Origin: Xylanibacter ruminicola 23
Lineage (GTDB): Bacteria; Bacteroidota; Bacteroidia; Bacteroidales; Bacteroidaceae
NCBI RefSeq assembly: GCF_000025925.1
Contig: NC_014033.1
Span: 1,140,001 to 1,172,000 of the forward strand
Length of the DNA: 32,000 nucleotides
Reading direction: 5' to 3'
The translations under genes were made by a program, and so were the position numbers. Positions within the stretch are counted from its first letter, which is position 1. Every line of letters begins with the position of its first letter. Shown one piece after another: positions 10,180-32,000 of the stretch. The notes beneath the pieces were generated by a model. The model was not told the DNA's origin. It was given only the letters and a program-made list of their open reading frames with translations, and made no database searches.

Positions 10180-12003
10180 ATGGATATTTTTGGCATTTTA
10201 CGACAATATTTCGGCTATTCTTCCTTCCGTCAGAACCAAGAAGAAATCATCCGCCACGTGATTGCGGGCAATGATGCGTTGGTGCTCATGCCTACGGGTG
10301 GAGGTAAAAGTATTTGCTATCAGATTCCCGCTTTGGCGCTGCCTGGCATTACCATCGTTATCTCGCCGCTCATCAGCTTGATGAAGGATCAGGTCGAGAC
10401 GCTGCGTTCGAATGGTATCGAGGCCGAAGCCCTGAACAGTGGAAACGACCCCACGCTGGATACCGTGATTCGTCGCAAATGCTTAGCCGGACAGATAAAA
10501 CTGCTGTATATATCACCCGAGAAACTGCTGGCCGAGATGGATTATTTTATGCAGCATCTGCAGATATCGCTCTTTGCCATCGACGAGGCCCACTGCATCA
10601 GTCATTGGGGTCATGATTTCCGTCCCGAATATACCCAGTTGGGTGTGCTGCGCGAAAAATTTCCCAATGTGCCCATGATGGCATTAACGGCCACCGCCGA
10701 TAAGATTACCCGCCAAGATATTCTTACGCAACTTAAACTAAGGAACGCGCGCGAGTTTGTGTCAAGCTTCGATCGCCCCAACCTTAGTTTGTCGGTAAAA
10801 AGAGGCTACAAATCGGCCGAGAAAATGCACTTTATTCTCAACTTCATCAAGGCGCGCCCCAACGATGCAGGCATCATCTACTGTCTCAGTCGTAAAACCA
10901 CCGAGAAGGTAGCTGCCGACCTGCGTAAAAAAGGTATCAACGCCGCTGCCTATCATGCCGGTTTGTCGTCGTTAGAGCGCAGTCAGACGCAAGAGCAGTT
11001 CAAGAACGATCAGCTGCTGGTGGTATGCGCCACCATCGCCTTTGGTATGGGTATCGATAAGAGCAACGTGCGCTGGGTAATCCATTACAACATGCCCAAA
11101 AGCATCGAGAGTTTTTATCAGGAGATTGGTCGTGCCGGTCGCGATGGTGCCCCCGCCGATACCGTGCTGTTCTACTCGCTGGCCGATATCATCCAACTTA
11201 CTGAGTTTGCTCGTCAGAGTGGTCAGCAGGATGTGAATATGGACAAGCTGAAACGCATGCAGGAGTATGCCGAATCCAACGTGTGCCGCCGCCGCATACT
11301 GTTGAACTATTTTAGTGAGCAGACCGACCACGACTGCGGCAACTGCGATGTGTGCGACAACCCACCCCAGCGCTTTGACGGCACCCGTTATGTGCAGATG
11401 GCCCTGAGCGCCGCCAAACGTGCCAACGAGGATATCCGCATTTCAACCATCATCGAGATTCTGAAAGGTATGCGCTCGCCTGCTGTGATGCGCCAGGGGT
11501 TCGACCGCCTGAAAACCTTTGGTGTGGGACATGACCTGAGCCTGACCGACTGGCAGGACTATCTGTTGCAGATGCTGCAGATGGGCTTTATCGAGATAGC
11601 CTATAACGATGGCAACAAGGTAAAGGTAACCGCCATTGGCGACGATGTGCTTTACGGTCGAAAACCCGCCCAGTTGTGTGTGGTAGATCATAGCGCCAAA
11701 GAGGCACCTAAGAAGAAACCCAAGTTGCGTTTGGAGATACCCACCATCACCATCCCCGGATTGCCCCCAACCACCGGTATCGAGGATCCCAAACTGTTCG
11801 AAGCCCTCCGTCAGCTGCGCAAGCAGTGTGCCGAAGAAGAAGGCTTTCCTCCATACATCGTTTTCAGCGATAAGGTGCTCCATTCATTGGCCACCATCAA
11901 GCCCACCTCGCTGGCTCAGTTTGGCAACATCCAGGGCATCGGCGAGCACAAAAAAGGCAAGTATGGCGAACGTTTTGTATCGCTCATCCAAAAGTACGTT
12001 TAA
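10180..12003 (+). CDS. recQ: ATP-dependent DNA helicase RecQ
   Basis: 607 aa. It has MPTGGGKS, FAIDEAHCISHWGHDFRPEY (DEAH), the Zn-binding CRRRILLNYF..CGNCDVC, and a C-terminal HRDC (LFEALRQLRKQCAEEEGFPPYIVFSD). Confidence 0.95.
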   Translation: MDIFGILRQYFGYSSFRQNQEEIIRHVIAGNDALVLMPTGGGKSICYQIPALALPGITIVISPLISLMKDQVETLRSNGIEAEALNSGNDPTLDTVIRRKCLAGQIKLLYISPEKLLAEMDYFMQHLQISLFAIDEAHCISHWGHDFRPEYTQLGVLREKFPNVPMMALTATADKITRQDILTQLKLRNAREFVSSFDRPNLSLSVKRGYKSAEKMHFILNFIKARPNDAGIIYCLSRKTTEKVAADLRKKGINAAAYHAGLSSLERSQTQEQFKNDQLLVVCATIAFGMGIDKSNVRWVIHYNMPKSIESFYQEIGRAGRDGAPADTVLFYSLADIIQLTEFARQSGQQDVNMDKLKRMQEYAESNVCRRRILLNYFSEQTDHDCGNCDVCDNPPQRFDGTRYVQMALSAAKRANEDIRISTIIEILKGMRSPAVMRQGFDRLKTFGVGHDLSLTDWQDYLLQMLQMGFIEIAYNDGNKVKVTAIGDDVLYGRKPAQLCVVDHSAKEAPKKKPKLRLEIPTITIPGLPPTTGIEDPKLFEALRQLRKQCAEEEGFPPYIVFSDKVLHSLATIKPTSLAQFGNIQGIGEHKKGKYGERFVSLIQKYV

Positions 12004-17080: not shown

Positions 17081-17120
17081 AAAAAAGCCGAAAGCAAAAA
17101 AACTTTCGGCTCTATTTTTT
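17081..17120 (-). terminator. strong intrinsic terminator after the M15 peptidase gene, at the core/accessory boundary
   Basis: 9-bp stem agccgaaag / ctttcggct (17086-17094 / 17103-17111) with an 8-nt loop. T-runs follow on both strands. Confidence 0.7.
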
Positions 17121-17571
17121 ACGCATTTATGAATAACACCTTATGTCGGTTATCTTTCGGCCTCACCGCAAAGTGTACCCAGATGGCGCCATAGCGATTC
17201 TTTTCTATCAGCAATTCATCAAACTCCTGTGCCGATTCCTTGGCGTAATCAATCAGTATCGCCGCATAGCAGATGGCCTGCTCATACCCCGAGGTTCGAA
17301 TATCCACCGCACATCCCGTTAAGTGATTACTGGTGGGTGCTCCACCAACCTTACGATTTAACTGCGGCGATCGATAACCTGAGTTAATGATAATAGGTTG
17401 TGAGGCTTTCTCTCGCAAAACCTCCAGCCAAGTACAGAGGTTGGCAAGGTTCGCAATCGCCTCATGACTAGGAATGTTATACACTTCAGGATATTTGCTC
17501 CTAGTGAACTCCCCCAACACGAAATGTTGGGAGAGATTTGCTTTACTGTTCAATTGTACTATAGCTTCCAT
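17119..17571 (-). CDS. peptidase M15 family (D-Ala-D-Ala carboxypeptidase / endolysin-like)
   Basis: 150 aa. SGYRSPQLNRKVGGAPTSNHLTGCAVDI..IWVHFAV is the Hx6D..H zinc site of Peptidase_M15_3-type enzymes. Confidence 0.8.
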   Translation of the reverse strand: MEAIVQLNSKANLSQHFVLGEFTRSKYPEVYNIPSHEAIANLANLCTWLEVLREKASQPIIINSGYRSPQLNRKVGGAPTSNHLTGCAVDIRTSGYEQAICYAAILIDYAKESAQEFDELLIEKNRYGAIWVHFAVRPKDNRHKVLFINA

Positions 17572-17606
17572 AATGTTTAATGTTTAATATTTAATGTTTA
17601 ACGTTT
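17572..17606 (+). repeat. heptanucleotide array E: (AATRTTT)5
   Basis: Units read aatgttt aatgttt aatattt aatgttt aacgttt. The array starts directly after the M15 start codon (17571) and contains the TAA stop of the upstream 789-aa ORF (17598-17600). Confidence 0.85.
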
Positions 17607-19967
17607 CCTAAACTTTTCGCTCTTAACAAAACTGAAATCTGAAATCTGAAACACATACTTTCTGCTTTTCCAGATTCTTATCATTTTGATGGCCCTACTT
17701 GCATCCATGCCTTGCTTTTGGCGCATGCGCTTTGCATCGTCTAATGTAAACTCATCTGGCAACAGCTCCAGCAGATTTCGAGGGCCACGGGTTCCCATGC
17801 GCTCGCCTTCTTGGTTGGCTCTTTCAATATCTTCACCAAAGAACTGCATTTTGCACCATAGATCGTACTGCAGGCTCCAACGGACAAAATCTTCAATCGT
17901 CTTTTCCCATTGGCAGCCATTGGCCACATACAGCACACAGGCCTTTAACCAAGCTATTACGATGGCACGATGCGACAGGTTCCAATACGTTTCATCCTGC
18001 GACAATCGGGCAAATTCAGCGCACTCCTCCTGTAGCTTTTTAGCCAGTTTGAATGCCTGCGGACAATCCACCACGCCATGAGCCGACACAAGGTTGTCGA
18101 TATACGTTTTCAGTTCAGCATCAAACGCCTCGTCGTATTTGCCGTAAATGGGCTGCTCTGCTCCAATCTCCATCTCTGGGATGGTACAGAAATTGATTCG
18201 GCTGATAGGACCATCAGTAAGTACTCGACTGAAGAAGCGACGACCTTTTTGGATAGTAGTACAGGCGTTCCAGTTGAATCTACACTTAGGTCTGGCTGTT
18301 ACACTCTGGGTACCGATACGTGTTTGTCCGAACTCAGCACCAGGGTCGAAAGCCAAGCACATCAGTTGGAAATGCTGCTTGCCAGTCTGACCTTTCAGCT
18401 GCTCAAACAAGTCAATCTCGTTCAGCTTTACATACACAAAGTGGCCTTCAGCCTCGTCCATACGGGTAACCAATGCGGGCTTGGTCATATCGGGATCAAT
18501 CTCTTGTATCACCAGTCCTTCTGGTCGCACCTGTTTATCCTTATTAGCACCCTTCTTTTGGCAATCCTTTTTCCACTCGGCCTCTCTTCGGGTGTTCTCG
18601 GCATCGCGGGCTTTAATATCGGCCATGATATGACGGATAGGCTCATCTATACAGCCTTTACCTGCGCCCGTATGCGCCATCAAGCAGTTCATCAGCGTGG
18701 CCTCATGCTTCACGTAATCGGTGTACTCAAACTCTACCTCTTTCAAGTGTGTGCCAAGCGATGGAAACACCGCATGCGCCACCGCAGCTTTGTATTGGTT
18801 GGGGGTATTCTTGGTAAGTAGTTTAATCAGTTTCGGCAGTTTTGCTGGCATCTCAGGAGGAATAGGAGCAGAACGATCACTCACTTCTGCTTCTTTATCA
18901 TCCCCCAGTCTCCTACTCTTCGTAAATATTGCCTCTTCATCCTTATTCAGTTTTCGTTCAGGATTGTAATACTTGGCATAAAAATCACTCAGGCATTTCT
19001 GTACATTCGCATCGGCCCAATGTTCGGGCATCAGTTCCGCCAAAGCTCCGTTTGCCTCCTCCTTACTTAATAACTGGTTACAGCCACTCAGGAATATCTT
19101 CACCGCATTATGCCTACCACCAATATCCGTAAAGTCCGATTTCTCCAGTCCCTTAGCCTTCAGCACCGCCTCCATCACAAACCTCACCCTCTCATCAATT
19201 GGTTTATTTTGCAACGGACTACAGGACTTTGCTGTGACCAGGGACTGGTCCCTGTCGCAGGATGTGACTGGGCCCTGTCCCTCGTCACGGCTCTCGCGGC
19301 TATTCTCGCGGCCATCATCCGTTGCTAAATCATCTTCCCAAGGCTTATAGTGCTTCCTCGCCTTTTTAGCCCCAGCCGGCACCTGCTCCTCACCTTTACG
19401 CTCACGGTTTTTCAATCGGACGTATTCCGCCTCGCACTCCTCAACCGTCATGGGTTCATCAAACAGCTCGTCGTTGAGAAAAAGTAAATCATTTTCATCA
19501 CCACTTGTTGAGTAAACCACCCTTTGCAAATCATGCACATTAGTATCCATCTCAATCTGCAGAATGGTCGCAATGCGCACCTGGTTCTCAAGAATAGTAT
19601 AGCCAGGCTGGCGCTTACAAACCAAATGATATCCTCCACTCGCACTCTTCTCCAGCAGCATCAAGCCTATCTCATCTTTCTTGGCCAGTATCTGCTGTGC
19701 CATTGCCGCACTTTGGTCGGCATCATAGCAATCCACATCGTGAAAAAAGTAGCTACCAATGCTCTTGCAACCAGCCAAAGCCGAGCTATTCAGTACACCG
19801 ATATTGTAGGCAAACTGCACCAATTGCGCCTTAGCTTTCTCATCGCCTTTGCGCGCTTTGACTAAGTTCTCCAGATTCTCCTTGGTGTTTCTGAGCGCCA
19901 AGAAATCTTCACGATTCTTTACCAGATAAGCAAACTTCTTACCCTTATTAACTATGCGGTAAATCAT
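17598..19967 (-). CDS. putative primase/helicase-like replication protein (VirE/BT4734-like N-domain plus DUF3987-like C-region)
   Basis: 789 aa. The N-domain has FFHDVDCYD (DxD) and SGGYHLVCK (sxH), as in archaeo-eukaryotic primase-polymerase folds. An acidic/low-complexity linker follows. The C-region has MAHTGAGKGC. The family names are from memory. Confidence 0.55.
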   Translation of the reverse strand: MIYRIVNKGKKFAYLVKNREDFLALRNTKENLENLVKARKGDEKAKAQLVQFAYNIGVLNSSALAGCKSIGSYFFHDVDCYDADQSAAMAQQILAKKDEIGLMLLEKSASGGYHLVCKRQPGYTILENQVRIATILQIEMDTNVHDLQRVVYSTSGDENDLLFLNDELFDEPMTVEECEAEYVRLKNRERKGEEQVPAGAKKARKHYKPWEDDLATDDGRENSRESRDEGQGPVTSCDRDQSLVTAKSCSPLQNKPIDERVRFVMEAVLKAKGLEKSDFTDIGGRHNAVKIFLSGCNQLLSKEEANGALAELMPEHWADANVQKCLSDFYAKYYNPERKLNKDEEAIFTKSRRLGDDKEAEVSDRSAPIPPEMPAKLPKLIKLLTKNTPNQYKAAVAHAVFPSLGTHLKEVEFEYTDYVKHEATLMNCLMAHTGAGKGCIDEPIRHIMADIKARDAENTRREAEWKKDCQKKGANKDKQVRPEGLVIQEIDPDMTKPALVTRMDEAEGHFVYVKLNEIDLFEQLKGQTGKQHFQLMCLAFDPGAEFGQTRIGTQSVTARPKCRFNWNACTTIQKGRRFFSRVLTDGPISRINFCTIPEMEIGAEQPIYGKYDEAFDAELKTYIDNLVSAHGVVDCPQAFKLAKKLQEECAEFARLSQDETYWNLSHRAIVIAWLKACVLYVANGCQWEKTIEDFVRWSLQYDLWCKMQFFGEDIERANQEGERMGTRGPRNLLELLPDEFTLDDAKRMRQKQGMDASRAIKMIRIWKSRKYVFQISDFSFVKSEKFRKR

Positions 19968-20335
19968 TTACTAAATCCTTTCTTTTGCAGGTGTTTAATG
20001 ATGGGGCAAATACCCTTTCGCAGGATGGTTGGTAACTGGGCGCGCAGTTCGTTAGGTACCACAAATGTTACGCGATCGTTGCCATCAGCACCAAACGACA
20101 AACTGGCGTAATCTCCTTTAAATTCAGGCTTATGGCGTAATCGTTTGGTTCTCACAAACTCAAATGATCCGTTGGTCAACAATTGACCTAATCCACGACC
20201 ACGAAAAGCCTCCACTTGTCCTATACTCGGATTATCTGGCAGGAACTGCACATAATCCATTTCCAAATCACTCTTTGTAACGGCCATCATGCCGTTAACA
20301 GTTACGGTCTTGTTTAATTTGTTACTTGTTTTCAT
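19964..20335 (-). CDS. hypothetical protein
   Basis: I placed the start at ATG 20333-20335 (MKTSNKLNK..), because the track start at 20407 is a GTG in the upstream spacer. An ATGA overlap joins it to the downstream 789-aa ORF. Confidence 0.55.
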   Translation of the reverse strand: MKTSNKLNKTVTVNGMMAVTKSDLEMDYVQFLPDNPSIGQVEAFRGRGLGQLLTNGSFEFVRTKRLRHKPEFKGDYASLSFGADGNDRVTFVVPNELRAQLPTILRKGICPIIKHLQKKGFSK

Positions 20336-20490
20336 TTTGTTTTTGAGTTTTAAAGCGAGAAGAAGTTTCGGATTCCTTGGCCATTTACTCGAGAATATCC
20401 TCCTCACGTCAACTCAAATAACTAGTAAAATATGAAATAAGGAATGTTTTAATCTTTTAATCGTTTCTTTAGTACGCTTGCCTAAGCAAG

Positions 20491-20539
20491 AATCTTTAAT
20501 GTTTAATCTTTAATGTTTAATGTTCAACGTTTAATCTTG
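20491..20539 (+). repeat. heptanucleotide array F: (AATSTTT)7, partly degenerate
   Basis: Units read aatcttt aatgttt aatcttt aatgttt aatgttc aacgttt aatcttg. The array overlaps the last codons and TGA stop of the DUF3127-like ORF (20524-20526). Confidence 0.85.
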
Positions 20540-20805
20540 CAAATCTCGTTCGCAACAACGTCCATAAACGCTTGTCCATTGTACTCGCGAGTTTGGAATC
20601 GCAAATCAGCAACCACCAGTTCGTTCTCAGCAAACTCTATGGTGGCCAGGTTACCAAGTGTTGTAACCACATAGCTGTTAGCATATTTGCCACCAAGTTC
20701 CTGTAACACTAAGGTTCGCTTGTTCAGCACACCATTCTCACTTTTCTCACTCTGCACGGTAGTCATCACTCCGCACTTTTTTACTCTTAAAATCATTGTG
20801 TTCAT
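20524..20805 (-). CDS. DUF3127-like small OB-fold-type protein
   Basis: I placed the start at ATG 20803-20805 (MNTMILRVKK..). The C-terminal ..ADLRFQTREYNGQAFMDVVANEI resembles the ..RE(W/Y)NG(R/K).. signature I recall for DUF3127. Confidence 0.5.
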   Translation of the reverse strand: MNTMILRVKKCGVMTTVQSEKSENGVLNKRTLVLQELGGKYANSYVVTTLGNLATIEFAENELVVADLRFQTREYNGQAFMDVVANEICKIKR

Positions 20806-20863
20806 AATTCTTTTACTTTTTAAGTTGTTAAACAAATTGTTACATTTTATCATTTTTACATTT

Positions 20864-21025
20864 TTAAAATTCCAAATAAATGCTTCCGTATTTAGCTTGG
20901 AACTCTTTTCTGATTTCCTCGATACTTTTTCGAGTAATGCGATATCCGCGATCATACGCTTGCTGCTCCTCAGCTCTCACGTTAGCCAGATACAGCAGAT
21001 ATTCTTTTCGTTTAATCCCAGCCAT
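20864..21025 (-). CDS. possible 53-aa hypothetical protein (not in the ORF track)
   Basis: ATG 21023-21025 to TAA 20864-20866 gives MAGIKRKEYLLYLANVRAEEQQAYDRGYRITRKSIEEIRKEFQAKYGSIYLEF. It overlaps the Rha ORF stop by 14 nt. It has a helical, protein-like composition but no homology evidence. Confidence 0.3.
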   Translation of the reverse strand: MAGIKRKEYLLYLANVRAEEQQAYDRGYRITRKSIEEIRKEFQAKYGSIYLEF

Positions 21026-21719
21026 GACCGTTTTCAATCAGGTTAGTTATAAAATCGCGACCTTTCTCAGTCCAAACCAGATAGGTTTCGTATTTCAGCT
21101 TGCCTTTCAGCGAGTAACTCACATTCAATCGATCGGCCGTCAGCCCTAACCCTTCGTACTTGGGTAGTAGTCGGTACTGTCCGCATCGCCATCGTTGAAT
21201 CTTCATGTCAACCAGAAACGAGTTCAGGTCGTGCGCTGTCATGTTGTAAACGGCAGCAATCTCCGAAACCGTCAAGCAGCCGTCGCTCTCCTCGTTCACC
21301 TCATCCAGCTGCTCGCCTACTATCTCTTCCGACTCGTGCAGCACCTCTTGCTTGGTGGTAAGCAATCGCATCGACTGGTGTTGTGCCAGTCGTTCCATTT
21401 CCAACTGTTCCCATCGCAGCACCAACTTTGCTCGCATCTCATCGTCATACTTAGTGGCGACATAGAGACACTCGGTTTTGGTGAGCGAATAGCATGGCTT
21501 TAAACGTCCACGCAAATCCTTATACTCAATGAGTCCAAACTTGGACCCATTAACTTTTTCCCACGCAGGCTCCATACTTCTAATGTCGCGCAATACGTGA
21601 TTGTGTTGTTTCCCGCAAATCTCCGCTATTTCCAGCGACGTCATGTGCTGCTGGTTATACTGAGCATGCATGCGGGTTGTAAAACTTGAAGTTGTTTTTG
21701 AAATTGTAATTGTATTCAT
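21012..21719 (-). CDS. Rha-family phage regulatory protein with C-terminal KilAC/antirepressor-like domain
   Basis: 235 aa. MTSLEIAEICGKQHNHVLRDIRSM is the Phage_pRha signature. The C-terminal LTVSEIAAVYNMTAHDLNSFLVDMKIQ..YEGLGL is ANT/KilAC-like. Confidence 0.75.
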   Translation of the reverse strand: MNTITISKTTSSFTTRMHAQYNQQHMTSLEIAEICGKQHNHVLRDIRSMEPAWEKVNGSKFGLIEYKDLRGRLKPCYSLTKTECLYVATKYDDEMRAKLVLRWEQLEMERLAQHQSMRLLTTKQEVLHESEEIVGEQLDEVNEESDGCLTVSEIAAVYNMTAHDLNSFLVDMKIQRWRCGQYRLLPKYEGLGLTADRLNVSYSLKGKLKYETYLVWTEKGRDFITNLIENGHGWD

Positions 21720-21859
21720 AATCTTTAAAATTTTAAATTGTTATTGTTTAATAATGTACGTGCGCCTCTGTGCGCACATGTGCGTATATATACGCCATTT
21801 TATCGCCCTCCGCCGTTCGGAAGGTGAATGTTGTACCAGCATGTCAAAGATCACGTCGG

Positions 21860-21867
21860 CAAAGGTA
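21860..21867 (-). promoter_or_regulatory. -7 promoter box TAccTTTG upstream of the Rha gene
   Basis: Plus-strand caaaggta is tacctttg on the minus strand, 141 nt upstream of ATG 21719 and adjacent to the repeat cluster. Confidence 0.4.
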
Positions 21868-21870
21868 GAG

Positions 21871-22021
21871 TTCAACTATTCAACTCAAAAATTAATTTCA
21901 GTTGAGTTTTCAGTTGAACGGACAAAAATGCCCGCAAACGCCTTTGTTTACAGGCACGAAAAAAACAAAAAAAAATTCTACCAACATTCCAGTTGAATGC
22001 CAGTAGAACTTTTCAGTTGAA
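21871..22021. promoter_or_regulatory. cluster of AGTTGAA / TTCAACT iteron-like repeats
   Basis: ttcaact occurs at 21871-21877 and 21879-21885. tttcagttga occurs at 21896-21905, 21908-21917 and 22011-22020. ttccagttgaa occurs at 21987-21997, and a degenerate copy at 22000-22009. Confidence 0.5.
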
Positions 22022-22035
22022 TTTTAAGGCTTAAA

Positions 22036-23337
22036 TCAGTCTTTCACATAGTTGACAATCCAGTCAGCAATATCCCCTTTCTTACCCCTACCCATATACA
22101 CGGCAAAGGTTTTACTATCTGTGTTATCATCGCCCACGATAGCCGATGCAATACCCAAGTCGCTGCCTTGTATTACGCCAGCCCTTTTCAGACCATACAC
22201 TACAGCAGCCTTCAGTTGGGGCCGCTTGCTGGCTATTTGCCATTCGTCAGCTATAACGCTACCTATCTTCGATTTCATCAGACTGCTCACCAGCTCATCA
22301 CGCCACATGGTAGAATATTTCTCCTTATCAACCGAAACCGCATCAAACCAATCCTGCTGCAGCATTCGGCTGATGGTATTATAAGGTGCAAACAGGGTTG
22401 TATTCTCCAACGTTCCTGTTTGTGTAGGTTGTAGCACATTTACAAGTTCTGGGTTCAATCGGGCCATCTCCTTGTGTATCAGGTACAGCTTCATGTCGAG
22501 TTCAAAGATGGCTTGCAGCTGCGTATCGCTAAAGTCGTAGTAATGATTTTGGATGTATTTCCCGTATTTCTTGTAGTCGATAATAAGTATGGTGTCGTTC
22601 CAATGTATAAACTGCCGCCACTGGGCACATGCTACACAAAAATCGTCACTCATCACAAAATCATAAGGCAGAAATCCCTTCAGATAGTCGAGCCTAACCT
22701 CGTTCAATTCTTTCTGCGACGGCACAGGCGCAAAATTCATAATACCTTTTGTTAGCGATTCGGCTACCACTTTGGCCTGCAGTTCTCTCAGTTTGTCGAT
22801 GGTTACACACAGGTTCTCGTACCGCCATTTCTCAAATCTCTTCGATATCGCATCGCCGCTGTAGTTCTGCTTTTTGGCAAAATAGAATTTCTCAAACATG
22901 GCAGAATCGCAATGCATCAACGCTTTCTCAGCCTCAGCCAATAGCGTTTTCAGGTCTTCGATGTAGCATTTCAGACTCTCGTAAAAGCTTTCACCTTCCA
23001 TGTCGCTACAGATTCTTTCACACCACAGCCAGAACAATTCTTCGCGACGCAACCCTGACGAGATGCTGAACGCCTCCATGCACTTACCACGTTTCAGGTC
23101 TTCGATATACCCCGGTAGTAACTTCACGGCACCCTTCAGTTGTCGCATAAAGAACCGAGCAACAAAGGCTCTAATTCTACTGTTTTCAATAGATACCACA
23201 CAATATTGGCTGGCTATTTCCCTGGCAAGGTTGAGGTAATTTTTTAAACTTGGCAGGTAGTCAAGGGGCGCTCCGCAGCCAGCAGCCGAAGCTGCCCCAA
23301 GTTGAGCTCTTTCAAGCTCATTGTTGATAGTTTCCAT
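22036..23337 (-). CDS. hypothetical protein (433 aa), no recognisable motifs
   Basis: Long uninterrupted ORF with normal amino-acid composition and its own upstream TAnnTTTG box. I recognise no catalytic or binding motif. Confidence 0.7.
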   Translation of the reverse strand: METINNELERAQLGAASAAGCGAPLDYLPSLKNYLNLAREIASQYCVVSIENSRIRAFVARFFMRQLKGAVKLLPGYIEDLKRGKCMEAFSISSGLRREELFWLWCERICSDMEGESFYESLKCYIEDLKTLLAEAEKALMHCDSAMFEKFYFAKKQNYSGDAISKRFEKWRYENLCVTIDKLRELQAKVVAESLTKGIMNFAPVPSQKELNEVRLDYLKGFLPYDFVMSDDFCVACAQWRQFIHWNDTILIIDYKKYGKYIQNHYYDFSDTQLQAIFELDMKLYLIHKEMARLNPELVNVLQPTQTGTLENTTLFAPYNTISRMLQQDWFDAVSVDKEKYSTMWRDELVSSLMKSKIGSVIADEWQIASKRPQLKAAVVYGLKRAGVIQGSDLGIASAIVGDDNTDSKTFAVYMGRGKKGDIADWIVNYVKD

Positions 23338-23756: not shown

Positions 23757-23806
23757 AGCTTACCCCGCTTCCCGTAGAACAGCGCGCTTAGGGTGAGCCT
23801 TTTTTA
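23757..23806 (+). terminator. terminator-like hairpin plus U-run in the Abi leader (possible attenuator or tiny RNA)
   Basis: agcttaccc (23757-23765) pairs with gggtgagc (23791-23798): 8 bp including one G-T. An inner cgct/agcg stem is present. TTTTTT at 23800-23805 lies 11 nt before the ATG. Confidence 0.35.
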
Positions 23807-23816
23807 TTATTTAATC

Positions 23817-24713
23817 ATGAACAAAGTACCATATCCCAAACATATTCAGACGTTTGCTAATCAAATTAGCATTCTTAAGCAGCGTGGTTTGTCTATAAAC
23901 GACGAAGAGGAAACAGAAAAATGGCTCCGTAAAGTCAGTTACTATCGCATGAGCGGTTACTGGTATCCACTTTTGGAAGATAGACAGAATCACATCTTTA
24001 AACCAGGTAGCACTTTTGAGCAGGCAAAGATGCTTTATGAATTCGATAGCCATCTGCGTCGTATAGTGCTCTCTGCTATTGAGCGTATCGAAATTGCTAT
24101 TCGCACCCAAATGGCCTACGTTATGTCTCAAGCTCATGATGGTTACTGGTTTACTGATGTCGATCTATTTACAAATTCGTCACAGCATGCCAAGACGCTT
24201 GCCAGTATTCACGATGAGTTTCACCGTAGTGACGAACAGTTTGTAAAGTCGTTCAGACGAAAATACAGCAATCCATTGCCTCCCAGTTGGATAACACTCG
24301 AAATCACATCATTTGGAACAATGTCTATCCTTTATCAGAATCTTAAACCTGGACGTTCTAAGCGTGATGTGGCAGCCGCCTTTGGAGTTAGCGATACAGT
24401 ATTCGTCTCATGGCTCCACACTTTGGTTTACGTCCGTAACATCTGTGCCCATCACGCACGCCTTTGGAACAGAACTTTGGGTGTGCGCCCCCTGATGCCA
24501 CGTCAACCTCGTAACACCTTTATTCCGCAACCAGCCTCAGGAACACAACGTACCTATTTCGTACTTGCCATCATCCGCTATTGGCTCAACCTTATCGAGC
24601 CATCCAACAAGTTGCCACAAGATCTTATTCAACTTTTTTCTCTCTATCCAAGTGTTTACCCCGGTGCTCTCGGATTCCCCCAATCTTGGCAGCAGGAAGC
24701 TTTGTGGAAGTAG
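23817..24713 (+). CDS. Abi_2 (AbiD/AbiF-like) abortive-infection family protein
   Basis: I placed the start at ATG 23817 (MNKVPYPK..), because the track start 23793 is a GTG inside the leader hairpin. VSYYRMSGYWYPL.., LYEFDSHLRRIVL..IERIEIAIRT and VRNICAHHARLWNR are Abi_2 family hallmarks. Confidence 0.85.
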   Translation: MNKVPYPKHIQTFANQISILKQRGLSINDEEETEKWLRKVSYYRMSGYWYPLLEDRQNHIFKPGSTFEQAKMLYEFDSHLRRIVLSAIERIEIAIRTQMAYVMSQAHDGYWFTDVDLFTNSSQHAKTLASIHDEFHRSDEQFVKSFRRKYSNPLPPSWITLEITSFGTMSILYQNLKPGRSKRDVAAAFGVSDTVFVSWLHTLVYVRNICAHHARLWNRTLGVRPLMPRQPRNTFIPQPASGTQRTYFVLAIIRYWLNLIEPSNKLPQDLIQLFSLYPSVYPGALGFPQSWQQEALWK

Positions 24714-24839: not shown

Positions 24840-26084
24840 TCACTCAAAAGCCTTAATGACCTCTTCGTATTTCTTTATCCAGTAGGCCCCTCGTTGTTCC
24901 TGAAGACTCAACAATAACGACTTATTAAACACCTTGCCTTTCGTTTCATCCAAAGGTTTTTCTAAATGGATAAGCCAATATGTATTGTCGCGTGTGGGTT
25001 TATAGTCAGAAGTATGTGATGCCATTTCTGCAACTTGCTCTCGAGTTCTAACCTGCGGTTTCAAACCTGATATACGGCATAGTTGTGCTTTCTTCGAATC
25101 CTTTCCCAGAAACGCCAATACATATTCTGCACCAAGCAACTTTGGCATTGATAACACCTTACTAATGGGCAATATATAGTTTTTTGATTTTTCAAACCAC
25201 TCCCATTGCTCATCAGAACCAATTCGGCCAACAAGCACATGATGAGGTTGTTCTGCTTGGATTGCACCATTGAAGTCAACCAGCACCATTTCTTTATATG
25301 CCTGGCAAATCTCTTTATTTTCTAATTCCTCACGACGTTTAGCAGCAAGTTCAAGAAAAGATTTTTCTATATCAATGCCCAGATACTTTCTACCAAGTAA
25401 CGATGCAGCGACGCCTGTTGTACCACTTCCATTAAATGGATCTAACACCCAGTCACCTTCTTTTGTGGATGCCATAATGATTCGAGCCAATAAACTCAAA
25501 GGCTTCTGTGTAGGATGCTTTCCACACGATTTTTCCCATTTTGATACAGCTGGCATTCGCCACACATCAGTCATCTGTTTGCCGTCGTTCAACTGTCGCA
25601 TCAGTTCATAGTTGTAACGATGCTGTGCCTTTTTCGATTTCTTGGCCCAAATAATGTACTCTGCAGAATGCTTGAATACTCGATGAGAAACGTTATCAGG
25701 TGGATCTGTCTTATTCCACGTCACCACATTAAGAATCTTAAACCCCAGTTCAGATAACTGCTCCGCTACAGAAAAGATGTTATGGTGTGTACCGCTAATC
25801 CAAATGGTACCATTATCCTTCAACTTATCTTTACAGGCTGATAACCATTTGTGATTAAACTCATCGATATATTCTGACGAAGGCGCTTTGTCCCACGCAC
25901 CTTTATCCACGCATACGACCTTACCATTACTTACACTAATACCACCATTACTCAGAAAGTAAGGAGGATCGGCAAATATCATATCAAACTTAAAGTCGAA
26001 CGCATTAAGCACCGACACACAATCACCCTCAACGAGGGTAAAATCTTTATTGGTTGAACGGTAATATGGTATGATTGTAGTCAT
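24840..26084 (-). CDS. beta-class DNA methyltransferase (DPPY, probably N6-adenine) with ~140-aa C-terminal extension of unknown function
   Basis: 414 aa. Motif IV FADPPY (aa ~38) precedes motif I DPFNGSGTT (aa ~215), which is beta-class order. KHPTQKPLSLL is typical of the N4/N6 MTase family. Residues ~270-414 have no motif I recognise. Confidence 0.9.
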   Translation of the reverse strand: MTTIIPYYRSTNKDFTLVEGDCVSVLNAFDFKFDMIFADPPYFLSNGGISVSNGKVVCVDKGAWDKAPSSEYIDEFNHKWLSACKDKLKDNGTIWISGTHHNIFSVAEQLSELGFKILNVVTWNKTDPPDNVSHRVFKHSAEYIIWAKKSKKAQHRYNYELMRQLNDGKQMTDVWRMPAVSKWEKSCGKHPTQKPLSLLARIIMASTKEGDWVLDPFNGSGTTGVAASLLGRKYLGIDIEKSFLELAAKRREELENKEICQAYKEMVLVDFNGAIQAEQPHHVLVGRIGSDEQWEWFEKSKNYILPISKVLSMPKLLGAEYVLAFLGKDSKKAQLCRISGLKPQVRTREQVAEMASHTSDYKPTRDNTYWLIHLEKPLDETKGKVFNKSLLLSLQEQRGAYWIKKYEEVIKAFE

Positions 26085-27502
26085 TATTGTTTTGATATTA
26101 TTTCTGATAGTTTGCTATTAATCTCCTCATCGCTTCGTTTGAATATAGTCGCAAGAACTTCTACAGAACATTGTTTCTCTTCATACAAAGTCTTCAGCAA
26201 TTCCAAATCCTTTTCAGACCATTGGTTATTGTTCTTACCAATTTCCCTATGAGAACCAACTATAAGCTGCATTTCGTCTGTTCCTTCAGAGAAATTACGT
26301 TCTTTCTGCACTCCCATTGGTGATTGTCCAGAACCGCTTCTACGAGTTGTAATATGTGAATCACCTTTGAAACACTTTTCCCAATCACGTTCTGAATTAG
26401 GAAGACCAAATTGAAAATGCAAACCGACATTATCCAAGATTAGGCAAATACTTTTTCCTGCAGTTGGACGCAACCCACGCCCCACCTGTTGTAAATACTT
26501 TACTAGCGATTTTGTAGGGCGAGCTAATTGTATAAACTCAATATCAGGACAATCAAATCCTTCCGAGAAAATATCCACATTAACAATTATATCTATCAAT
26601 CCCTTTTTGAATCGGTCAACATAGAGTTTGCGTTCATCTTTAGGAGTTTTGCTATCTATTCGCACAATATTTATACCTGCTTCACGATATTCCTGGCAGA
26701 TATGGTCACTATGTTTTCTGCTAATAGAATAGATAATACCTTTCTTGCCCTTGGCATATTTAAGATAGCTATCCAATAATTGTGCTCGGATTCGAGTCGT
26801 GTCTATTTTTTTCTCCAGCGCAGAAATTTTATAATCACCTTCTACATCAAATTCAGTGATAGAATTTATCTCCTTTTGGATTTCGCTGTTTATACTAATT
26901 GAGTAATAATCATATGGTGCTAACCATCCCGCATCAATAAAACTTTGTATAGATTGTGAAATGATGATTCTATCAAATACTCTTTCAAAGCCACCATTAT
27001 TCATTCGCCAAGGAGTAGCGGTAACGCCTAATTTCTTGGCATTTGGATACATATCCCAAAGTTTTTTATAAGAATTGGCTACGCAATGATGAGCCTCATC
27101 TACGATAATATAGTTGACATTCAAGTCACCGGCAACATCTAAATTGTTACGATGTGTAATAGTTTGTACTGATGCCACTTGTACAGGGTATCTCAAATCG
27201 CGTTGCTTTCCTCCTGCAATTATGCCATGTGAAACTTTGTATCGTTCCAAATTCTCACTAATTTGATCAATCAGTTCTATGCGATGTGCAATGATCAGAA
27301 TCTTAACATCCTCATCATTTTGTACACCCCAAGTTTTTATATCACTGATGATAGATGAGAACAGACGAGTTTTACCGGTACCAGTTGGCATCTGAAACAT
27401 AACTGCGTCACACTCGTCCCATGCTAAGAAGATAGCCTCCTTTGCTTGTTGCTGATAGGGACGCAGCGAATTATCTATTCTCGAAATATCCTTGTAGTTC
27501 AT
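26084..27502 (-). CDS. SF2 DEAD/DEAH-box helicase (ResIII / COG1061-like) with C-terminal Myb/SANT-like tail
   Basis: 472 aa. It has LRPYQ, MPTGTGKT, VDEAHH, VTATP and QQVGRGLR. The tail is WSEKDLELLKTLYEEKQCSVEVLATIFKRSDEEINSKL. A 1-nt TAATG overlap joins it to the downstream MTase. Confidence 0.9.
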   Translation of the reverse strand: MNYKDISRIDNSLRPYQQQAKEAIFLAWDECDAVMFQMPTGTGKTRLFSSIISDIKTWGVQNDEDVKILIIAHRIELIDQISENLERYKVSHGIIAGGKQRDLRYPVQVASVQTITHRNNLDVAGDLNVNYIIVDEAHHCVANSYKKLWDMYPNAKKLGVTATPWRMNNGGFERVFDRIIISQSIQSFIDAGWLAPYDYYSISINSEIQKEINSITEFDVEGDYKISALEKKIDTTRIRAQLLDSYLKYAKGKKGIIYSISRKHSDHICQEYREAGINIVRIDSKTPKDERKLYVDRFKKGLIDIIVNVDIFSEGFDCPDIEFIQLARPTKSLVKYLQQVGRGLRPTAGKSICLILDNVGLHFQFGLPNSERDWEKCFKGDSHITTRRSGSGQSPMGVQKERNFSEGTDEMQLIVGSHREIGKNNNQWSEKDLELLKTLYEEKQCSVEVLATIFKRSDEEINSKLSEIISKQ

Positions 27503-29796
27503 TCTGCATCAATGAAGTTAGCCAAATGAGTATTGATGAGTTCCAAACGATTCAAATCTGAACGTGTTAATGCAGAAGATTTCTTTCCCTTCGGCTCGCT
27601 AATTAGCGTCATCCAATTAAGTTTGTCTTTCTTGGATTTGAATGCAAGCCCGATGTTAATAGCGAATACTTCTTCGAACTCCTGATAGCTAAAATTTTTA
27701 TCAATCACGTCGCGGTATTCGGATACCTCCAAGTAATCTTTCCAATCATATTCAGACAGGTCGAAATCATCGTTGTCACCATATTCCTTTATTATTCTAC
27801 CTTCAACAGAATTCTTTAGAACAGCCACGTTGTTCAACCATTTAGCACCATACACCATTTCTAACCTAGCAAAGAGAAGCGTTCTAAGCTGTTTTCTTAT
27901 ATCAGCTTTACGATCTGCGCCTTCTTGCTGTAAAGATTGGTCTTGTGTTTCTTTCCATTCTACCAATTCTTCTGGTGCATATTCGGGGAACTTTTTATTG
28001 ATTATATTCTGATAAGAACGAAGCCAAAAAGTATCGGCACCTTGTCCCAACACTCCTTTAATAATACGATTATCTTCATCAGAAAGATTGTTGAGACTAT
28101 TAGCCAAATGTTGAATGTACGGTTCTATTGCTGCGATTCTATCAGGAATAGACGATTGTGGATTTATTGCGTTTATCTTGATAAGATATGTATGCAGAGA
28201 TCCTAATAGTGCAATAAATGCAAAAGTGGCACGGTTAGAGAAAAGGTAGTCTTGTTTCACTTCTTCAGTCATAATAGAGTCAGCTATAGCATAGCCTCCA
28301 TCAATGAACTTTGTGATTCTTGCACGAGAATCCTTCATCGCCTTATCTATATCCGTCTCGTTTGTATTGTAAATGCAGACATCCGTATCACCTGTCCATT
28401 GAGTTGATGTCGCTTTAGGTATTAACCCAGATCGACCTAATGCTGTGTCAAACGGTTTGAATGCCAACAATGAGGAGTCCTCTCCTACTGAAATCTTATT
28501 ATATAGAACATGATTTGAATTGGCAGCCAACGCTTTTATGCAGGATGAACGTAATGCTTTCATTCTAGAGTCCAAACGGGATGATTTCCAATAAAGATCT
28601 TCTTCTAAGTCTAAGCGAAGACTCGGACTTACAGCTTTCTGGTTCTCGTTAATCTCCATAAATATTTTTAACTGTTCTTCCGATTCCATACTTTCAAAAG
28701 CCACCACGGGAATTGTGCTATCCTCTTTATGCAGAGACTGGGCATATCCATATACACGATGCTGACCATCAATGATATAGGCAATACCATAGGCGTTTGG
28801 AATGCGGAGGAATCCAAATTCAGATTGAGAGTCTTTCTGAGCCTTAATGGGGGTAAACTTTACTTTCAAATCCTCCTTTACGGCACTAAAATTGATAATA
28901 ATGGAATTTGGGAAATAACCACCACCATCAATAAACTTAGTAATACCTTTCAGACGTGAAGGTACAAGAAGGCGCTGATAGGTCGGTGCCATCGAATCGT
29001 TAACACGTGTTCTATGTAACACAAATCCTATTTTTAGCAATGTACTGGGTTCTATGGAGAATATATAATAGTTACGTTCTCCCATTTTACCTCTCAATAC
29101 AGGTATCTTTATAACCTCATCGTTGATCAGTTCATCCTTAAACATCAAACCATAGAACTGGTAGATAACAGATTCCTTGTATGACTTGATAAGGTTATTG
29201 ATGTAATTAAAAGAATTATCATTCAGATGGAATATTCCTGCATTAGCCATACGAGCTATATCTTCATCGTTTACGCGATAATTGCGTGATGCGAACAGAA
29301 ATTTTACACGTTTATCTTTTCCATATATTTGTTGCAATGTTTTAGCAACGCCATCCATATACAACTCCATTTTGTTGAGTTCCGTTTTAAAACTATGGCT
29401 TACTGCTGTTTGAGCAGCCTTACATTCTACAACAAATATAGCATCATCTCCTACGGCAACAACATCAAGTTGCAGAGTATCTTCTTTGTTAGCCCCCCAT
29501 TGAACCACGAGTTTTTCGTCACCATTTAAGATGCGGAATCCAAGTTTATAGAACATACACCACACATCATCTTCAAACTGCACACCATGATCCTTTTTGC
29601 GAGTCATCGTTGTTTTGCGGGCAGAAGAACGCACTACAGAATAACCCATCTTCTCGTAGTCTTCAACTTCATTGTGAGGCCTACTGATAGTATCAAACTC
29701 TGTGTTCTTTGCCTTGAATTTAATTTTCAAAGCATCTTCCTCGCACATCATATGCGACTTGATTTTTTCCACTTGTAGTTCTGTCAGATGTTCCAT
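27499..29796 (-). CDS. PD-(D/E)xK nuclease-like domain fused to a DGQHR (DndB-like, ParB/Srx-fold) domain
   Basis: 765 aa. The N-domain has FEDDV..LQLDVVAVGDDAIFVVECK (ECK encoded at 29419-29427). The central domain has YYIFSIEPSTLLKIGFV, FPNSIIIN, IIDGQHR (encoded at 28756-28770) and FMEINENQKAV. A long helical C-terminal region follows. An ATGA overlap joins it to the helicase gene. Confidence 0.85.
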   Translation of the reverse strand: MEHLTELQVEKIKSHMMCEEDALKIKFKAKNTEFDTISRPHNEVEDYEKMGYSVVRSSARKTTMTRKKDHGVQFEDDVWCMFYKLGFRILNGDEKLVVQWGANKEDTLQLDVVAVGDDAIFVVECKAAQTAVSHSFKTELNKMELYMDGVAKTLQQIYGKDKRVKFLFASRNYRVNDEDIARMANAGIFHLNDNSFNYINNLIKSYKESVIYQFYGLMFKDELINDEVIKIPVLRGKMGERNYYIFSIEPSTLLKIGFVLHRTRVNDSMAPTYQRLLVPSRLKGITKFIDGGGYFPNSIIINFSAVKEDLKVKFTPIKAQKDSQSEFGFLRIPNAYGIAYIIDGQHRVYGYAQSLHKEDSTIPVVAFESMESEEQLKIFMEINENQKAVSPSLRLDLEEDLYWKSSRLDSRMKALRSSCIKALAANSNHVLYNKISVGEDSSLLAFKPFDTALGRSGLIPKATSTQWTGDTDVCIYNTNETDIDKAMKDSRARITKFIDGGYAIADSIMTEEVKQDYLFSNRATFAFIALLGSLHTYLIKINAINPQSSIPDRIAAIEPYIQHLANSLNNLSDEDNRIIKGVLGQGADTFWLRSYQNIINKKFPEYAPEELVEWKETQDQSLQQEGADRKADIRKQLRTLLFARLEMVYGAKWLNNVAVLKNSVEGRIIKEYGDNDDFDLSEYDWKDYLEVSEYRDVIDKNFSYQEFEEVFAINIGLAFKSKKDKLNWMTLISEPKGKKSSALTRSDLNRLELINTHLANFIDAE

Positions 29797-30250: not shown

Positions 30251-31177
30251 TTAATACCTTCTGATGACGACTTCGGTTTGCTTCTTTCGTTTTTCAGGAT
30301 CTGCATTGATGAATCTCGTAGCGAGTACCCGATTAAGATTATACCCTTCGTATAGGTTTTCAAAATACGAATCTCCATTATCAGTTTTACTATCAGAATT
30401 ACTTAACATTATCAGGCAATTCCGATTATAAAGCCTATCGCAGAACACTTTCAATTCTTTCTGTTGTCTGTCATCAAACGGCTCGTTCGTATATTCCTTA
30501 AAAGACGATGTTTCGTTCAAAGGACGATAAGGAGGATCGAAATATACAAAGTTTGAATTATTTCTGCTGAGGTTATGACTTACTTGTTTATAATCTCCTG
30601 GCTTGCGAATCACCAAATCAACAGAATTAAGAAGCTGGTGATCGGCCATTATCAGTTCTTCGTTGCAGATGACGGGCTTCCTGTAACGTCCGTATGGAAC
30701 ATTGAATCTCCCTGCCGCGTTTACTCTGTGTAGCCCGTTAAAACATGTATGATTTAAGAATATGAATAACGCAGCCCTTTCGTCAGGATGTATTCCTTCG
30801 CTATTATACTGATCGCGATAGAAATAATACAAATCTCTTCTTTCTAGGAAATCCACTCTAAAGTAGTTATCTTCAATATTCCTCAATCTATCAATAAGTG
30901 TTTGAGGCTCGTTGGTAACCAATTGATAACAACGGATAAGATCTGCATTGATATCATTGATAACGGCCCGCTTGATACACTTATGGCGTTGCAGCATGTG
31001 AAATAGCATTGCGCCACCACCAACGAAGGGTTCTATGTAAGTTACATTTTCAAGATCGTCGAAATCAGTTGGGAGTAGTGCTTCCAACTGCTGAAGGAGA
31101 TTTCCTTTTCCGCCTGCCCATTTTACGAAAGGCTTGGGCGTGATGGCCTTTTTCTTTACTACCGTGTTTTGAGGCAT
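30251..31177 (-). CDS. Dam-family (alpha-class, D12) N6-adenine DNA methyltransferase
   Basis: 308 aa. It has KPFVKWAGGKGNLL, EPFVGGGAM (motif I) and FVYFDPPY (motif IV), in alpha-class order. Confidence 0.9.
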   Translation of the reverse strand: MPQNTVVKKKAITPKPFVKWAGGKGNLLQQLEALLPTDFDDLENVTYIEPFVGGGAMLFHMLQRHKCIKRAVINDINADLIRCYQLVTNEPQTLIDRLRNIEDNYFRVDFLERRDLYYFYRDQYNSEGIHPDERAALFIFLNHTCFNGLHRVNAAGRFNVPYGRYRKPVICNEELIMADHQLLNSVDLVIRKPGDYKQVSHNLSRNNSNFVYFDPPYRPLNETSSFKEYTNEPFDDRQQKELKVFCDRLYNRNCLIMLSNSDSKTDNGDSYFENLYEGYNLNRVLATRFINADPEKRKKQTEVVIRRY

Positions 31178-31647: not shown

Positions 31648-32000
31648 TTACCAAATACTCCCATCTACCATTTTCAGACCTTCGTACAAGTTCACGACCT
31701 GCTTGTAGTTTAGAAACTTGACTCGATTTTCGATAGGTGAAAACATGGATACGTGCAACTTGTCTTCATATTCTTTCTTACGGCTTGAATCTGCTACAAT
31801 GAAGAAACCGGCATTGAAATCCTGAAGCTCGTAAAACTTGGTTAATGAGTTCTTGATGTCAGTTGTATGTTCAACCTCGTAAAAATCGGATGGCATATTG
31901 CGTTCGTTAAACCAAATAACATCTATCGTACGTGCTCTACGCTTCAAATCATCATAAGTAAAGTCAGGTAGTTCAGTGGTATCCGTTATCTCTCCTAGCC
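31648..32000 (-). CDS. C-terminal part of a PD-(D/E)xK-like nuclease candidate (N-terminus beyond the window edge)
   Basis: The frame stays open upstream of the track start (a TTG at 31945-31947) to nt 32000: ..LGEITDTTELPDFTYDDLKRRARTIDVIWFNE..FYEVEHTTDIKNSL. D..EVEH resembles restriction-endonuclease-fold cores. The family is not identified. Confidence 0.55.
   Translation of the reverse strand, partial: LGEITDTTELPDFTYDDLKRRARTIDVIWFNERNMPSDFYEVEHTTDIKNSLTKFYELQDFNAGFFIVADSSRKKEYEDKLHVSMFSPIENRVKFLNYKQVVNLYEGLKMVDGSIW

Follow-up and report, generated by a model that had tools for sequence, protein, structure and literature searches.

Fusions of ParB-like domains (COG1479, DUF262 and DGQHR) to HNH, PD-(D/E)xK and HEPN nucleases have been described by Makarova 2013 (PMC3632139), and a ParB plus Swt1-like HEPN fusion, ‘Saro_3948’, was listed as ‘mostly active’ in Table 1 of Anantharaman 2013 (PMC3710099). 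In the case of the Menshen protein NsnA, inactive restriction endonuclease (REase) domains lie N-terminal to DUF262 (PMC12065111). Regarding the ParB-like part itself, DNA stimulates the ATPase activity of DpdB (PMC10164549), binding of both ATP and GTP is on record for a DndB-like protein (bioRxiv 10.1101/2025.10.10.680097), and the DUF262 domains of SspE and GmrSD are nucleoside triphosphatases (NTPases; reviewed in PMC12065111). Here we describe a 765-aa protein encoded in a 32,000-nt stretch of contig NC_014033.1 (the whole stretch is called the window in the following), in which a predicted N-terminal PD-(D/E)xK nuclease domain is fused to a DGQHR domain and to an apparently degenerate C-terminal HEPN domain. 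In the reading that we favour, and that we hold to be somewhat probable, this fusion is the restriction (effector) subunit of a restriction-modification (RM)-like defence module, with a Dam-family methylase, probably GATC-specific, as its self-protecting partner.

The observed architecture resembles that of GmrSD, BrxU and SspE, in that a single polypeptide acting in defence carries an NTPase motif of the ParB/Srx fold (DGQQR or DGQHR) together with a helical domain and a nuclease. Like SspE, the fusion is paired with a DNA-modification module, and its matches in BFVD, a collection of predicted viral structures, include GmrSD-N proteins. However, the nuclease of GmrSD, BrxU and SspE is a C-terminal HNH/DUF1524 domain, whereas that of the fusion is an N-terminal PD-(D/E)xK domain. 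Furthermore, SspE is partnered with phosphorothioation instead of a Dam methylase, and GmrSD, a modification-dependent enzyme, lacks a methylase partner. In Pfam searches the window protein matched neither DUF262 (PF03235) nor DUF1524 (PF07510), and one of 61 relatives weakly matched GmrSD_N.

An earlier reading of the DNA, made from its letters (the original prediction), had presented a ParB-like module wired to a PD-(D/E)xK cutter as ‘a different solution’. The wiring is supported, as the predicted structure speaks for the first-named fold of a PD-(D/E)xK cutter and curated profiles confirm the DGQHR domain, with the NTPase part suggested by analogy. The novelty was overstated, as ParB-like fusions to PD-(D/E)xK and to HEPN are already in the surveys. 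What appears to be new is the linkage to a Dam methylase, a clade that carries a helicase and an alternating loss of two nuclease centres, and our literature search returned no paper on any of these three.

Operon and gene family

The fusion gene is a single open reading frame (ORF) with an ATG start in the ORF listing of the window. It lies in a tightly packed operon, with gaps of 3-4 nt or overlaps of 1-4 nt between the genes:

30251-31177, minus strand: operon gene 1, Dam-family D12 methylase, 308 aa
29801-30247, minus strand: operon gene 2, DUF7226 protein between the methylase and the fusion gene, 148 aa
27499-29796, minus strand: operon gene 3, the fusion protein, 765 aa
26084-27502, minus strand: operon gene 4, superfamily 2 (SF2) helicase (ResIII + Helicase_C, RadD-like), 472 aa, its start overlapping the fusion stop by 4 nt
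24840-26084, minus strand: operon gene 5, CcrM-like beta-class N6/N4 methyltransferase, 414 aa, its start overlapping the helicase stop by 1 nt

The fusion gene and operon form a low-GC island, with a G+C of 38% compared to 45% for the window. Script mapping onto the 765-aa protein placed FEDDVWCMFYKLGF at residues 74-87, LQLDVVAVGDDAIFVVECK at residues 108-126, the ECK motif at residues 124-126 (29419-29427) and the DGQHR motif at residues 343-347 (28756-28770). Together with the ORF listing, this reproduced exactly the positions originally given for the ORF and for both motifs.

The family is large. A word-indexed search returned more than 3160 matches, the best 120 of which were nearly all full-length, and an exhaustive search of 50%-identity representatives found 1676 at E ≤ 1e-3, of which 407 reached E ≤ 1e-30; over 100 of these representatives are full-length proteins of 740-800 aa. 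The family is abundant among Bacteroidales of the rumen and the gut; in Xylanibacter (Prevotella) ruminicola 23, its member WP_013063457.1 is 93% identical to the window protein. In the databases its members are called ‘DGQHR domain-containing protein’ or, wrongly, ‘DndB’. Plasmid and phage collections held no close relative; they held distant ones, annotated as ‘DGQHR domain-containing protein’. For gene linkage we used 67 genome loci from Bacteroidota, Pseudomonadota, Bacillota and Actinomycetota, 60 of them with upstream sequence. Motifs were read in 59 full-length sequences (58 genome loci and the window) and in a second sample of 119 full-length representatives.

A Dam-family methylase as the constant partner

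Of the 60 loci with upstream sequence, 59 have a D12 methylase directly upstream of the fusion gene, in four phyla and down to 29% identity, and DPPY is kept in all partner methylases, so that the generic mark of an RM system, a cognate methyltransferase linked to a nuclease-bearing gene, is present. Because the fusion nearly always adjoins a Dam-type methylase, its most likely role is that of the cutting subunit in a widespread RM-like phage defence. In many distant lineages the module consists of methylase and fusion alone, e.g. in L044, where it is flanked by a metabolic gene. The partner that stays constant is the methylase rather than the helicase, a point that the original prediction had missed. 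No conserved controller (C) protein was found upstream of the methylase, where the small ORFs are unrelated to each other.

The window methylase matched Pfam MethyltransfD12 (8e-53) and TIGR00571 (253 bits), and its best sequence match in the PDB was the GATC methylase DpnM (2dpm, 1.3e-53). Counterparts of EcoDam N120, R124 and P134 are kept in all alignable partners, with L/I at 122 and K/R at 9; we take these residues to be the GATC contacts in the EcoDam and T4 Dam crystal structures. From its sequence, the partner is therefore predicted to be an N6-adenine methylase and is probably specific for GATC. In the window, GATC occurs 72 times against 165 expected (0.44) and is the second-lowest 4-mer palindrome after CTAG; the ratio in the pooled loci is 0.66. 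This depletion lends circumstantial support to a GATC target.

Across all palindromes of the window, the observed/expected ratios were 0.21 for CTAG, 0.44 for GATC and 0.51 for CCGG, the others being at least 0.71. The depletion of CCGG may point to another restriction system in the lineage. PD-lambda-5 was considered as an identity for the system because its methylase model matched the Dam gene; it was rejected, as its A-component model had no match to the fusion and the paper concerns a compact prophage system of RM and abortive infection (Abi).

The N-terminal nuclease domain

The N-terminal part of the protein and its predicted catalytic residues are laid out as follows:

29596..29796, minus strand: residues 1-67, small N-terminal alpha/beta region preceding the nuclease core, with G51 and K68 nearly invariant among 61 diverse homologues
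29137..29595, minus strand: residues 68-220, PD-(D/E)xK domain (NERD/Card1/Hjc-like), from AlphaFold2 (AF2) and Foldseek with weak Pfam matches
29572-29574, minus strand: E75, predicted catalytic residue
29464-29466, minus strand: D111, predicted catalytic residue
29419-29427, minus strand: E124-C-K126, predicted catalytic residues

An AF2 model of the fusion built from 34 homologues reached a predicted local distance difference test (pLDDT) score of 82.9. Residues 1-67 are modelled as helices 6-13, 20-30 and 41-49 and strands 34-40, 53-57 and 61-67, with pLDDT 77-90. In the nuclease core, E75 is borne by the helix 70-85, D111 is flanked by strands 107-109 and 112-115, and E124-x-K126 lies on the strand 119-134. 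These elements are followed by a helix (137-158) and a strand (163-175), and the resulting order is the canonical alpha-beta-beta-beta-alpha-beta of PD-(D/E)xK. Compared with the PDB by Foldseek, the top matches, all with probability 1.00, were Cdn1 (9u49), VC1899 (1xmx), AF1548 (1y88) and Card1 (6xl1), followed by Can2, MspJI, Hjc and McrC; the superposition on AF1548 gave a root mean square deviation of 2.3 Å over 113 columns. Sequence searches of the PDB, with the fusion alone and with a 61-sequence profile, returned noise only. In Pfam, the N-terminus of the window protein matched Card1_endonuc (0.0023) and NERD (0.0056) weakly, and in the scan of the 61 homologues the matches reached 1e-5 for Hjc and about 5e-5 for NERD and Card1.

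The predicted active site is also well conserved. In the 34 homologues with 63-95% identity to the window protein, E75, D76, D111, E124 and K126 are invariant. In the 61 diverse members, E75 is found in 45, D111 in 56, E124 in 50 and K126 in 46, and 53/59 full-length sequences and 97/119 representatives have an intact D-ExK. Altogether, the model supports an N-terminal PD-(D/E)xK nuclease fold with the predicted catalytic residues on the canonical elements. The original prediction of an E/D/ExK arrangement in this region thus held, the residues being found on the expected elements of the modelled fold.

The DGQHR domain and the helical middle

The central part of the protein carries the following features:

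28462..29130, minus strand: residues 223-445, DGQHR (DndB/DpdB-type ParB-like) domain, predicted NTP-binding switch
28972-28977, minus strand: QR motif, residues 274-275
28756-28770, minus strand: DGQHR motif, residues 343-347
28648-28662, minus strand: FxxxN motif, residues 379-383
27940..28461, minus strand: residues 446-619, helical middle domain, mostly helical, pLDDT 85-97

The DGQHR region scored above the curated cutoffs of both NCBIfam TIGR03187 (118.9 bits, cutoff 58.85, E 3e-34, residues 233-441) and Pfam DndB PF14072 (67.4 bits, cutoff 29.1, E 1.6e-18, residues 231-395), in agreement with the domain first proposed here, and the PADLOC model of DpdB matched the same region with 1e-16. 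A QR pair, a DGQHR pentapeptide and FxxxN make up the motif set of the domain (PMC4619093), and all three are present in the window protein. Conservation is strict, as all 61 diverse homologues share H261, Y273, Q274, R275, F295, D343-R347, F379, N383 and Q386, and the DGQHR motif is present in 118/119 full-length representatives.

Residues 447-765 are helical in the AF2 model except for one short predicted hairpin at about 461-468, and in the window protein itself they had no Pfam or PDB match. Residues 225-765 were also modelled separately (pLDDT 82.7). In a Foldseek comparison with BFVD, the DGQHR and helical parts resembled DndB-like and GmrSD-N proteins with E values between 1e-7 and 1e-3. 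Going by these models, the middle domain may correspond to the helical domain located behind the ParB core of DndB, GmrSD, SspE and NsnA. This equivalence is only suggestive, because the BFVD alignments to DndB-like proteins of 281-310 aa span 370-390 columns.

A putative degenerate HEPN domain and the alternation of predicted nuclease centres

The last part of the protein was recognised through its homologues:

27502..27939, minus strand: residues 620-765, putative degenerate Swt1-like HEPN domain

For this assignment, the 61 diverse homologues were scanned with Pfam. Fifteen of them matched HEPN_Swt1 (PF18731; best 1.2e-7) and three matched Abi_2, the HEPN match spanning about residues 628-759. 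In homologue P0164 it covers residues 628-748 and scores 27.8 bits against a gathering cutoff of 27.5. The window protein itself had no HEPN match at E ≤ 0.1, and its tail aligns column for column with the matching homologues. Most of the distant relatives carry RNxxxH, i.e. the HEPN Rx4-6H motif, about 8 residues past the conserved W728; at this position the window protein reads WMTLISEPKGKKSSA and the motif is absent. Because of these matches and this alignment, the last 130-145 residues or so appear to be a HEPN domain whose catalytic motif was lost in the clade of the window. The original prediction had described some 350 C-terminal residues as helical and unassigned; they are helical in the model, and they are not wholly unassigned, as the tail ends in this putative HEPN domain.

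The pattern of motif loss was then read in the 119 representatives. Both the PD-(D/E)xK motif and the HEPN Rx4-6H motif are intact in 51; PD-(D/E)xK is intact with HEPN lost in 46; PD-(D/E)xK is lost with HEPN intact in 21; and both are lost in one. Hence, at least one predicted nuclease centre is kept in 118/119, and the HEPN motif, present in 72/119 overall, is kept in 21 of the 22 representatives whose PD motif has decayed (Fisher p = 8e-5 without correction for phylogeny, with few independent evolutionary events behind it). Because the observed patterns point consistently in this direction, a requirement for at least one nuclease centre is suggested. The methylase linkage in 59/60 loci and the alternative nuclease centre where the PD motif has decayed also fit the initial proposal that the fusion is the effector of its operon.

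In the 67 loci, an SF2 helicase lies downstream only in relatives with at least 46% identity, and the helicase-carrying clade is exactly the clade that lacks the HEPN motif: Rx4-6H was found in 0/32 helicase-linked sequences (31 loci and the window) and in 16/27 helicase-less loci. Relatives with an intact HEPN motif include those of Pontibacter (L036) and Methylotenera (L038). The pattern suggests that the lineage without the RNase centre is the one in which the helicase was acquired. The window helicase matched Pfam ResIII (2e-29) and Helicase_C (5e-18), as well as the helicase regions of the PADLOC models mREase_IV and PbeA (about 1e-31).

In L058, L059 and L061 (Ruminococcus, Bacilli), both centres of the fusion are decayed, and a NERD-helicase and a large DEAD helicase are encoded in the same operon. 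The five-gene operon of these loci (251-10286 in L059) encodes a 1131-aa DEAD helicase, a 637-aa protein, a 529-aa NERD nuclease plus helicase, a D12 methylase and the fusion. In L047 (Myroides guanonis), the PD motif of the fusion is decayed (V/D/DCL) and its HEPN motif is intact; about 750 bp downstream of the fusion gene lies a 157-aa ORF (11078-11551, plus strand) with a borderline GIY-YIG match of 22.6 bits, equal to the cutoff.

Proposed mechanism and alternative explanations

In the mechanism that we propose, the Dam-type methylase would mark the host DNA. The fusion, as a methylation-sensitive enzyme, would engage unmarked DNA, its DGQHR domain serving as an NTP-binding and NTP-hydrolysing switch over DNA engagement or dimerisation, and the N-terminal PD-(D/E)xK domain would cut this unmarked DNA. 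Such NTP gating is suggested by analogy with DpdB, with the ATP- and GTP-binding DndB-like protein and with SspE and GmrSD, whose DUF262 domains are NTPases. In the Bacteroidales clade, an ancestral C-terminal RNase centre of the HEPN type would have been lost and an SF2 helicase added, whose gene is, rather probably, translationally coupled to that of the fusion. This helicase would supply translocation, and the result would be a split translocase plus nuclease, like the Type I/III enzymes.

If the fusion is indeed a Dam-protected restriction enzyme, it would represent a new class of restriction subunit in which a ParB-like NTPase is coupled to PD-(D/E)xK, and the ParB-fold switch would no longer be confined to chromosome segregation and the GmrSD/SspE enzymes. 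The genetic tractability of Prevotella and other Bacteroidales would be affected in practice, since these bacteria would restrict DNA that comes from dam-negative hosts.

Several points weigh against this restriction-subunit reading. With regard to the target, no GATC sequence-recognition domain was identified in the fusion protein, the GATC depletion could stem from other GATC systems in these lineages, and a simple GATC model leaves the second, CcrM-like methylase of the operon unexplained. L040, the sole exception to the linkage, has no methylase upstream. A Foldseek comparison of residues 225-765 with the PDB gave nothing significant, the best match being ParB (7bnr, probability 0.66), so that at the fold level the ParB-like assignment draws on predicted viral structures and sequence profiles. 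Because 22/119 representatives (about 18%) have lost the PD triad, the cutter is not a universal core of the family, and the DGQHR motifs are more strictly conserved than this triad. Finally, no biochemical or genetic experiment on any family member was found in the literature.

A rival idea is that the DGQHR domain is itself the effector or sensor core, acting through NTP hydrolysis or depletion or through ParB-type nicking, and that the PD-(D/E)xK domain is mainly a DNA-binding module or modification reader, as proposed for NsnA. The invariance of the DGQHR motifs (61/61 and 118/119) compared with the loss of the PD triad in 22/119 and in 17/61 of the diverse members would fit, as would the NsnA-type DUF262 proteins, whose catalytically dead REase domains are predicted sensors (PMC12065111), and the ParB/Srx proteins with nuclease and NTPase activities cited in PMC10853773. 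However, all four catalytic residues are invariant in the clade with 63-95% identity and D-ExK is intact in 53/59, and decay of the PD motif nearly always coincides with retention of the HEPN motif or with a nuclease encoded by another gene, which suggests that a dedicated nuclease centre is needed; we regard this idea as unlikely. Mark sensing in the manner of SspE appears improbable too. Here the protein, instead of just recognising sites that lack methylation, would read the host Dam mark to control its NTPase cycle and would nick or cut non-specifically away from the recognition site, with the helicase moving it. The combination of ParB-like NTPase, helical domain and nuclease in SspE and GmrSD (PMC12065111; PMC13251355) offers a parallel, no obvious GATC-reading domain was found in the fusion, and a helicase partner is present in the clade of the window; on the other hand, there is no evidence for m6A reading by the DGQHR domain, and the nuclease is here N-terminal and of a different fold. 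A role as a DndB-like regulator, which would bind DNA and control the expression or activity of the adjacent methylase without restricting foreign DNA, is very unlikely. DndB has been described as modulated by ATP and as regulating the transcription of the dnd operon negatively (PMC4507180; PMC10853773), and database records do call cluster members ‘DndB’. Yet the equivalog scores are far under the cutoffs (39 against 328 for DndB, 58 against 300 for DpdB), no dnd or dpd genes were found among the scanned window proteins, and a regulator would need neither an invariant PD-(D/E)xK triad nor an ancestral HEPN RNase motif nor a helicase partner.

A wider form of the restriction-subunit reading can be imagined, which we consider possible but rather doubtful. 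It would be a two-gene ‘restriction plus abortive infection’ module, in which a ParB-like NTP switch set by the Dam methylation status governs a PD-(D/E)xK DNase and a HEPN RNase as alternative effector centres in one protein; lineages would keep either or both, and the Bacteroidales clade of the window would have lost the RNase arm and gained helicase-driven DNA cleavage. If this were true, the ParB-fold switch would be a control element of a restriction enzyme, mechanistically undescribed so far. The alternating retention of DNase and RNase is a testable natural experiment on the exchange of defence effectors.

Comparison with other described systems

DndB and DpdB belong to the same DGQHR domain family as the fusion (TIGR03187 and PF14072; QR, DGQHR and FxxxN motifs). 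In contrast to the fusion, both lack a PD-(D/E)xK domain, and only the N-terminal half of their profiles matches it (1-160/338; 2-205/352). The fusion scored 39.1 bits with TIGR03233 (DndB, cutoff 328) and 57.8 with NF041060 (DpdB, cutoff 300), and the equivalog model of the Dnd-associated DGQHR protein was also missed by a wide margin. Because of these margins, the fusion is a DGQHR-domain protein that is neither DndB nor DpdB. No dnd genes were found among the scanned window proteins, and no DpdA-like gene in the operon. With PADLOC v2 at E ≤ 0.1, the fusion matched DpdB and gave two weak CARF_PDDEXK matches with its N-terminus, and it matched no REase or other named-system model.

In the case of Saro_3948, the comparison runs through its pNL1 homologue in L068 (Novosphingobium aromaticivorans, 769 aa), which is 26% identical to the window protein over residues 48-614 (74% of the query) and carries ECR and IRQYTAH motifs. 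L069 (Agrobacterium), a close counterpart of L068, shows 27% identity over residues 43-711. Saro_3948 is probably of the same protein family as the fusion and its L068 homologue. The survey differs in listing ParB and HEPN only, with no PD-(D/E)xK, Dam linkage, helicase clade or alternating loss found there, and the HEPN motif is lost in the window protein. On the plasmids of L068 (5863-13722) and L069 (5890-12594), the fusion adjoins a short DGQHR protein, a radical SAM protein and a GHKL-type ATPase, and there is no adjoining Dam methylase. These fusions have ECR or ECT instead of ECK, and the HEPN motif IRQYTAH was read in the L068 protein only. The two loci may represent a different DNA-modification module with the same type of effector.

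Some Menshen NsnA proteins likewise have a REase-fold domain before the ParB-like DUF262, followed by a helical domain (PMC12065111), but their REase domains lack the PD-(D/E)xK motif, and the partners NsnB (an ABC ATPase) and NsnC are absent here. In the PADLOC scan of the operon proteins, no Menshen model was among the listed matches; the partners are methylases, the DUF7226 protein and the SF2 helicase.

With Type III and ATP-dependent Type II systems the locus shares methylase protection, a PD-(D/E)xK cutter and an SF2 helicase, whose gene overlaps here with that of the nuclease. CglI/NgoAVII-type systems consist of R and a helicase N protein. In contrast to the Type III Res subunit, which joins helicase and PD-(D/E)xK, nuclease and helicase are here separate, with a ParB-like NTPase between the nuclease and the C-terminal domains, and 27/59 full-length sequences of the family have no helicase at all. 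DpnII and MboI are small, NTP-independent enzymes. The resemblance to them lies in the partner methylase, which is closest to DpnM and keeps the GATC-contact residues, and in the local GATC depletion; the difference is that the second methylase is here CcrM-like and not DpnA-like.

Other operon genes and surroundings

The second methylase matched Pfam N6_N4_Mtase (4.5e-59), and its best PDB sequence match was CcrM (6pbd, 2.9e-58, 200 bits). Because it is CcrM-like, it is probably of the GANTC type. It is restricted to the five nearest loci (L001-L003, L005 and L007). A DpnA-like identity was rejected (200 bits to CcrM against 103), and the protein has a C-terminal extension of about 160 aa. 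The DUF7226 protein (PF23871, 1.5e-13) is sporadic, in 16/67 loci, and resembles the C-terminal 145 positions of the PADLOC REase_II model PDLC03513 (278-423/426) with 1e-7; the literature search returned no paper mentioning DUF7226.

The operon is directly followed, on the other strand, by an AbiD/Abi_2 (HEPN-family) abortive-infection gene (23793-24713, plus strand; Pfam 3e-60, PADLOC AbiD 1e-74). Because AbiD adjoins the operon, the region looks like a small defence island. Phage-like genes lie beside it (17119-23337), namely a Rha/ANT antirepressor (21012-21719), an M15 peptidase (17119-17571) and a DUF3127 protein (20524-20955), together with three ORFs of 789, 433 and 147 aa that have no Pfam match. 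No tRNA genes were found in the window, and its G+C drops from about 20 kb on, to about 36-45% compared to 44-56% upstream. Close to the end of the window, on the upstream side of the Dam gene, a 99-aa ORF (31648-31947, minus strand) containing ‘FYEVEHTTDIK’ could be part of another defence gene.

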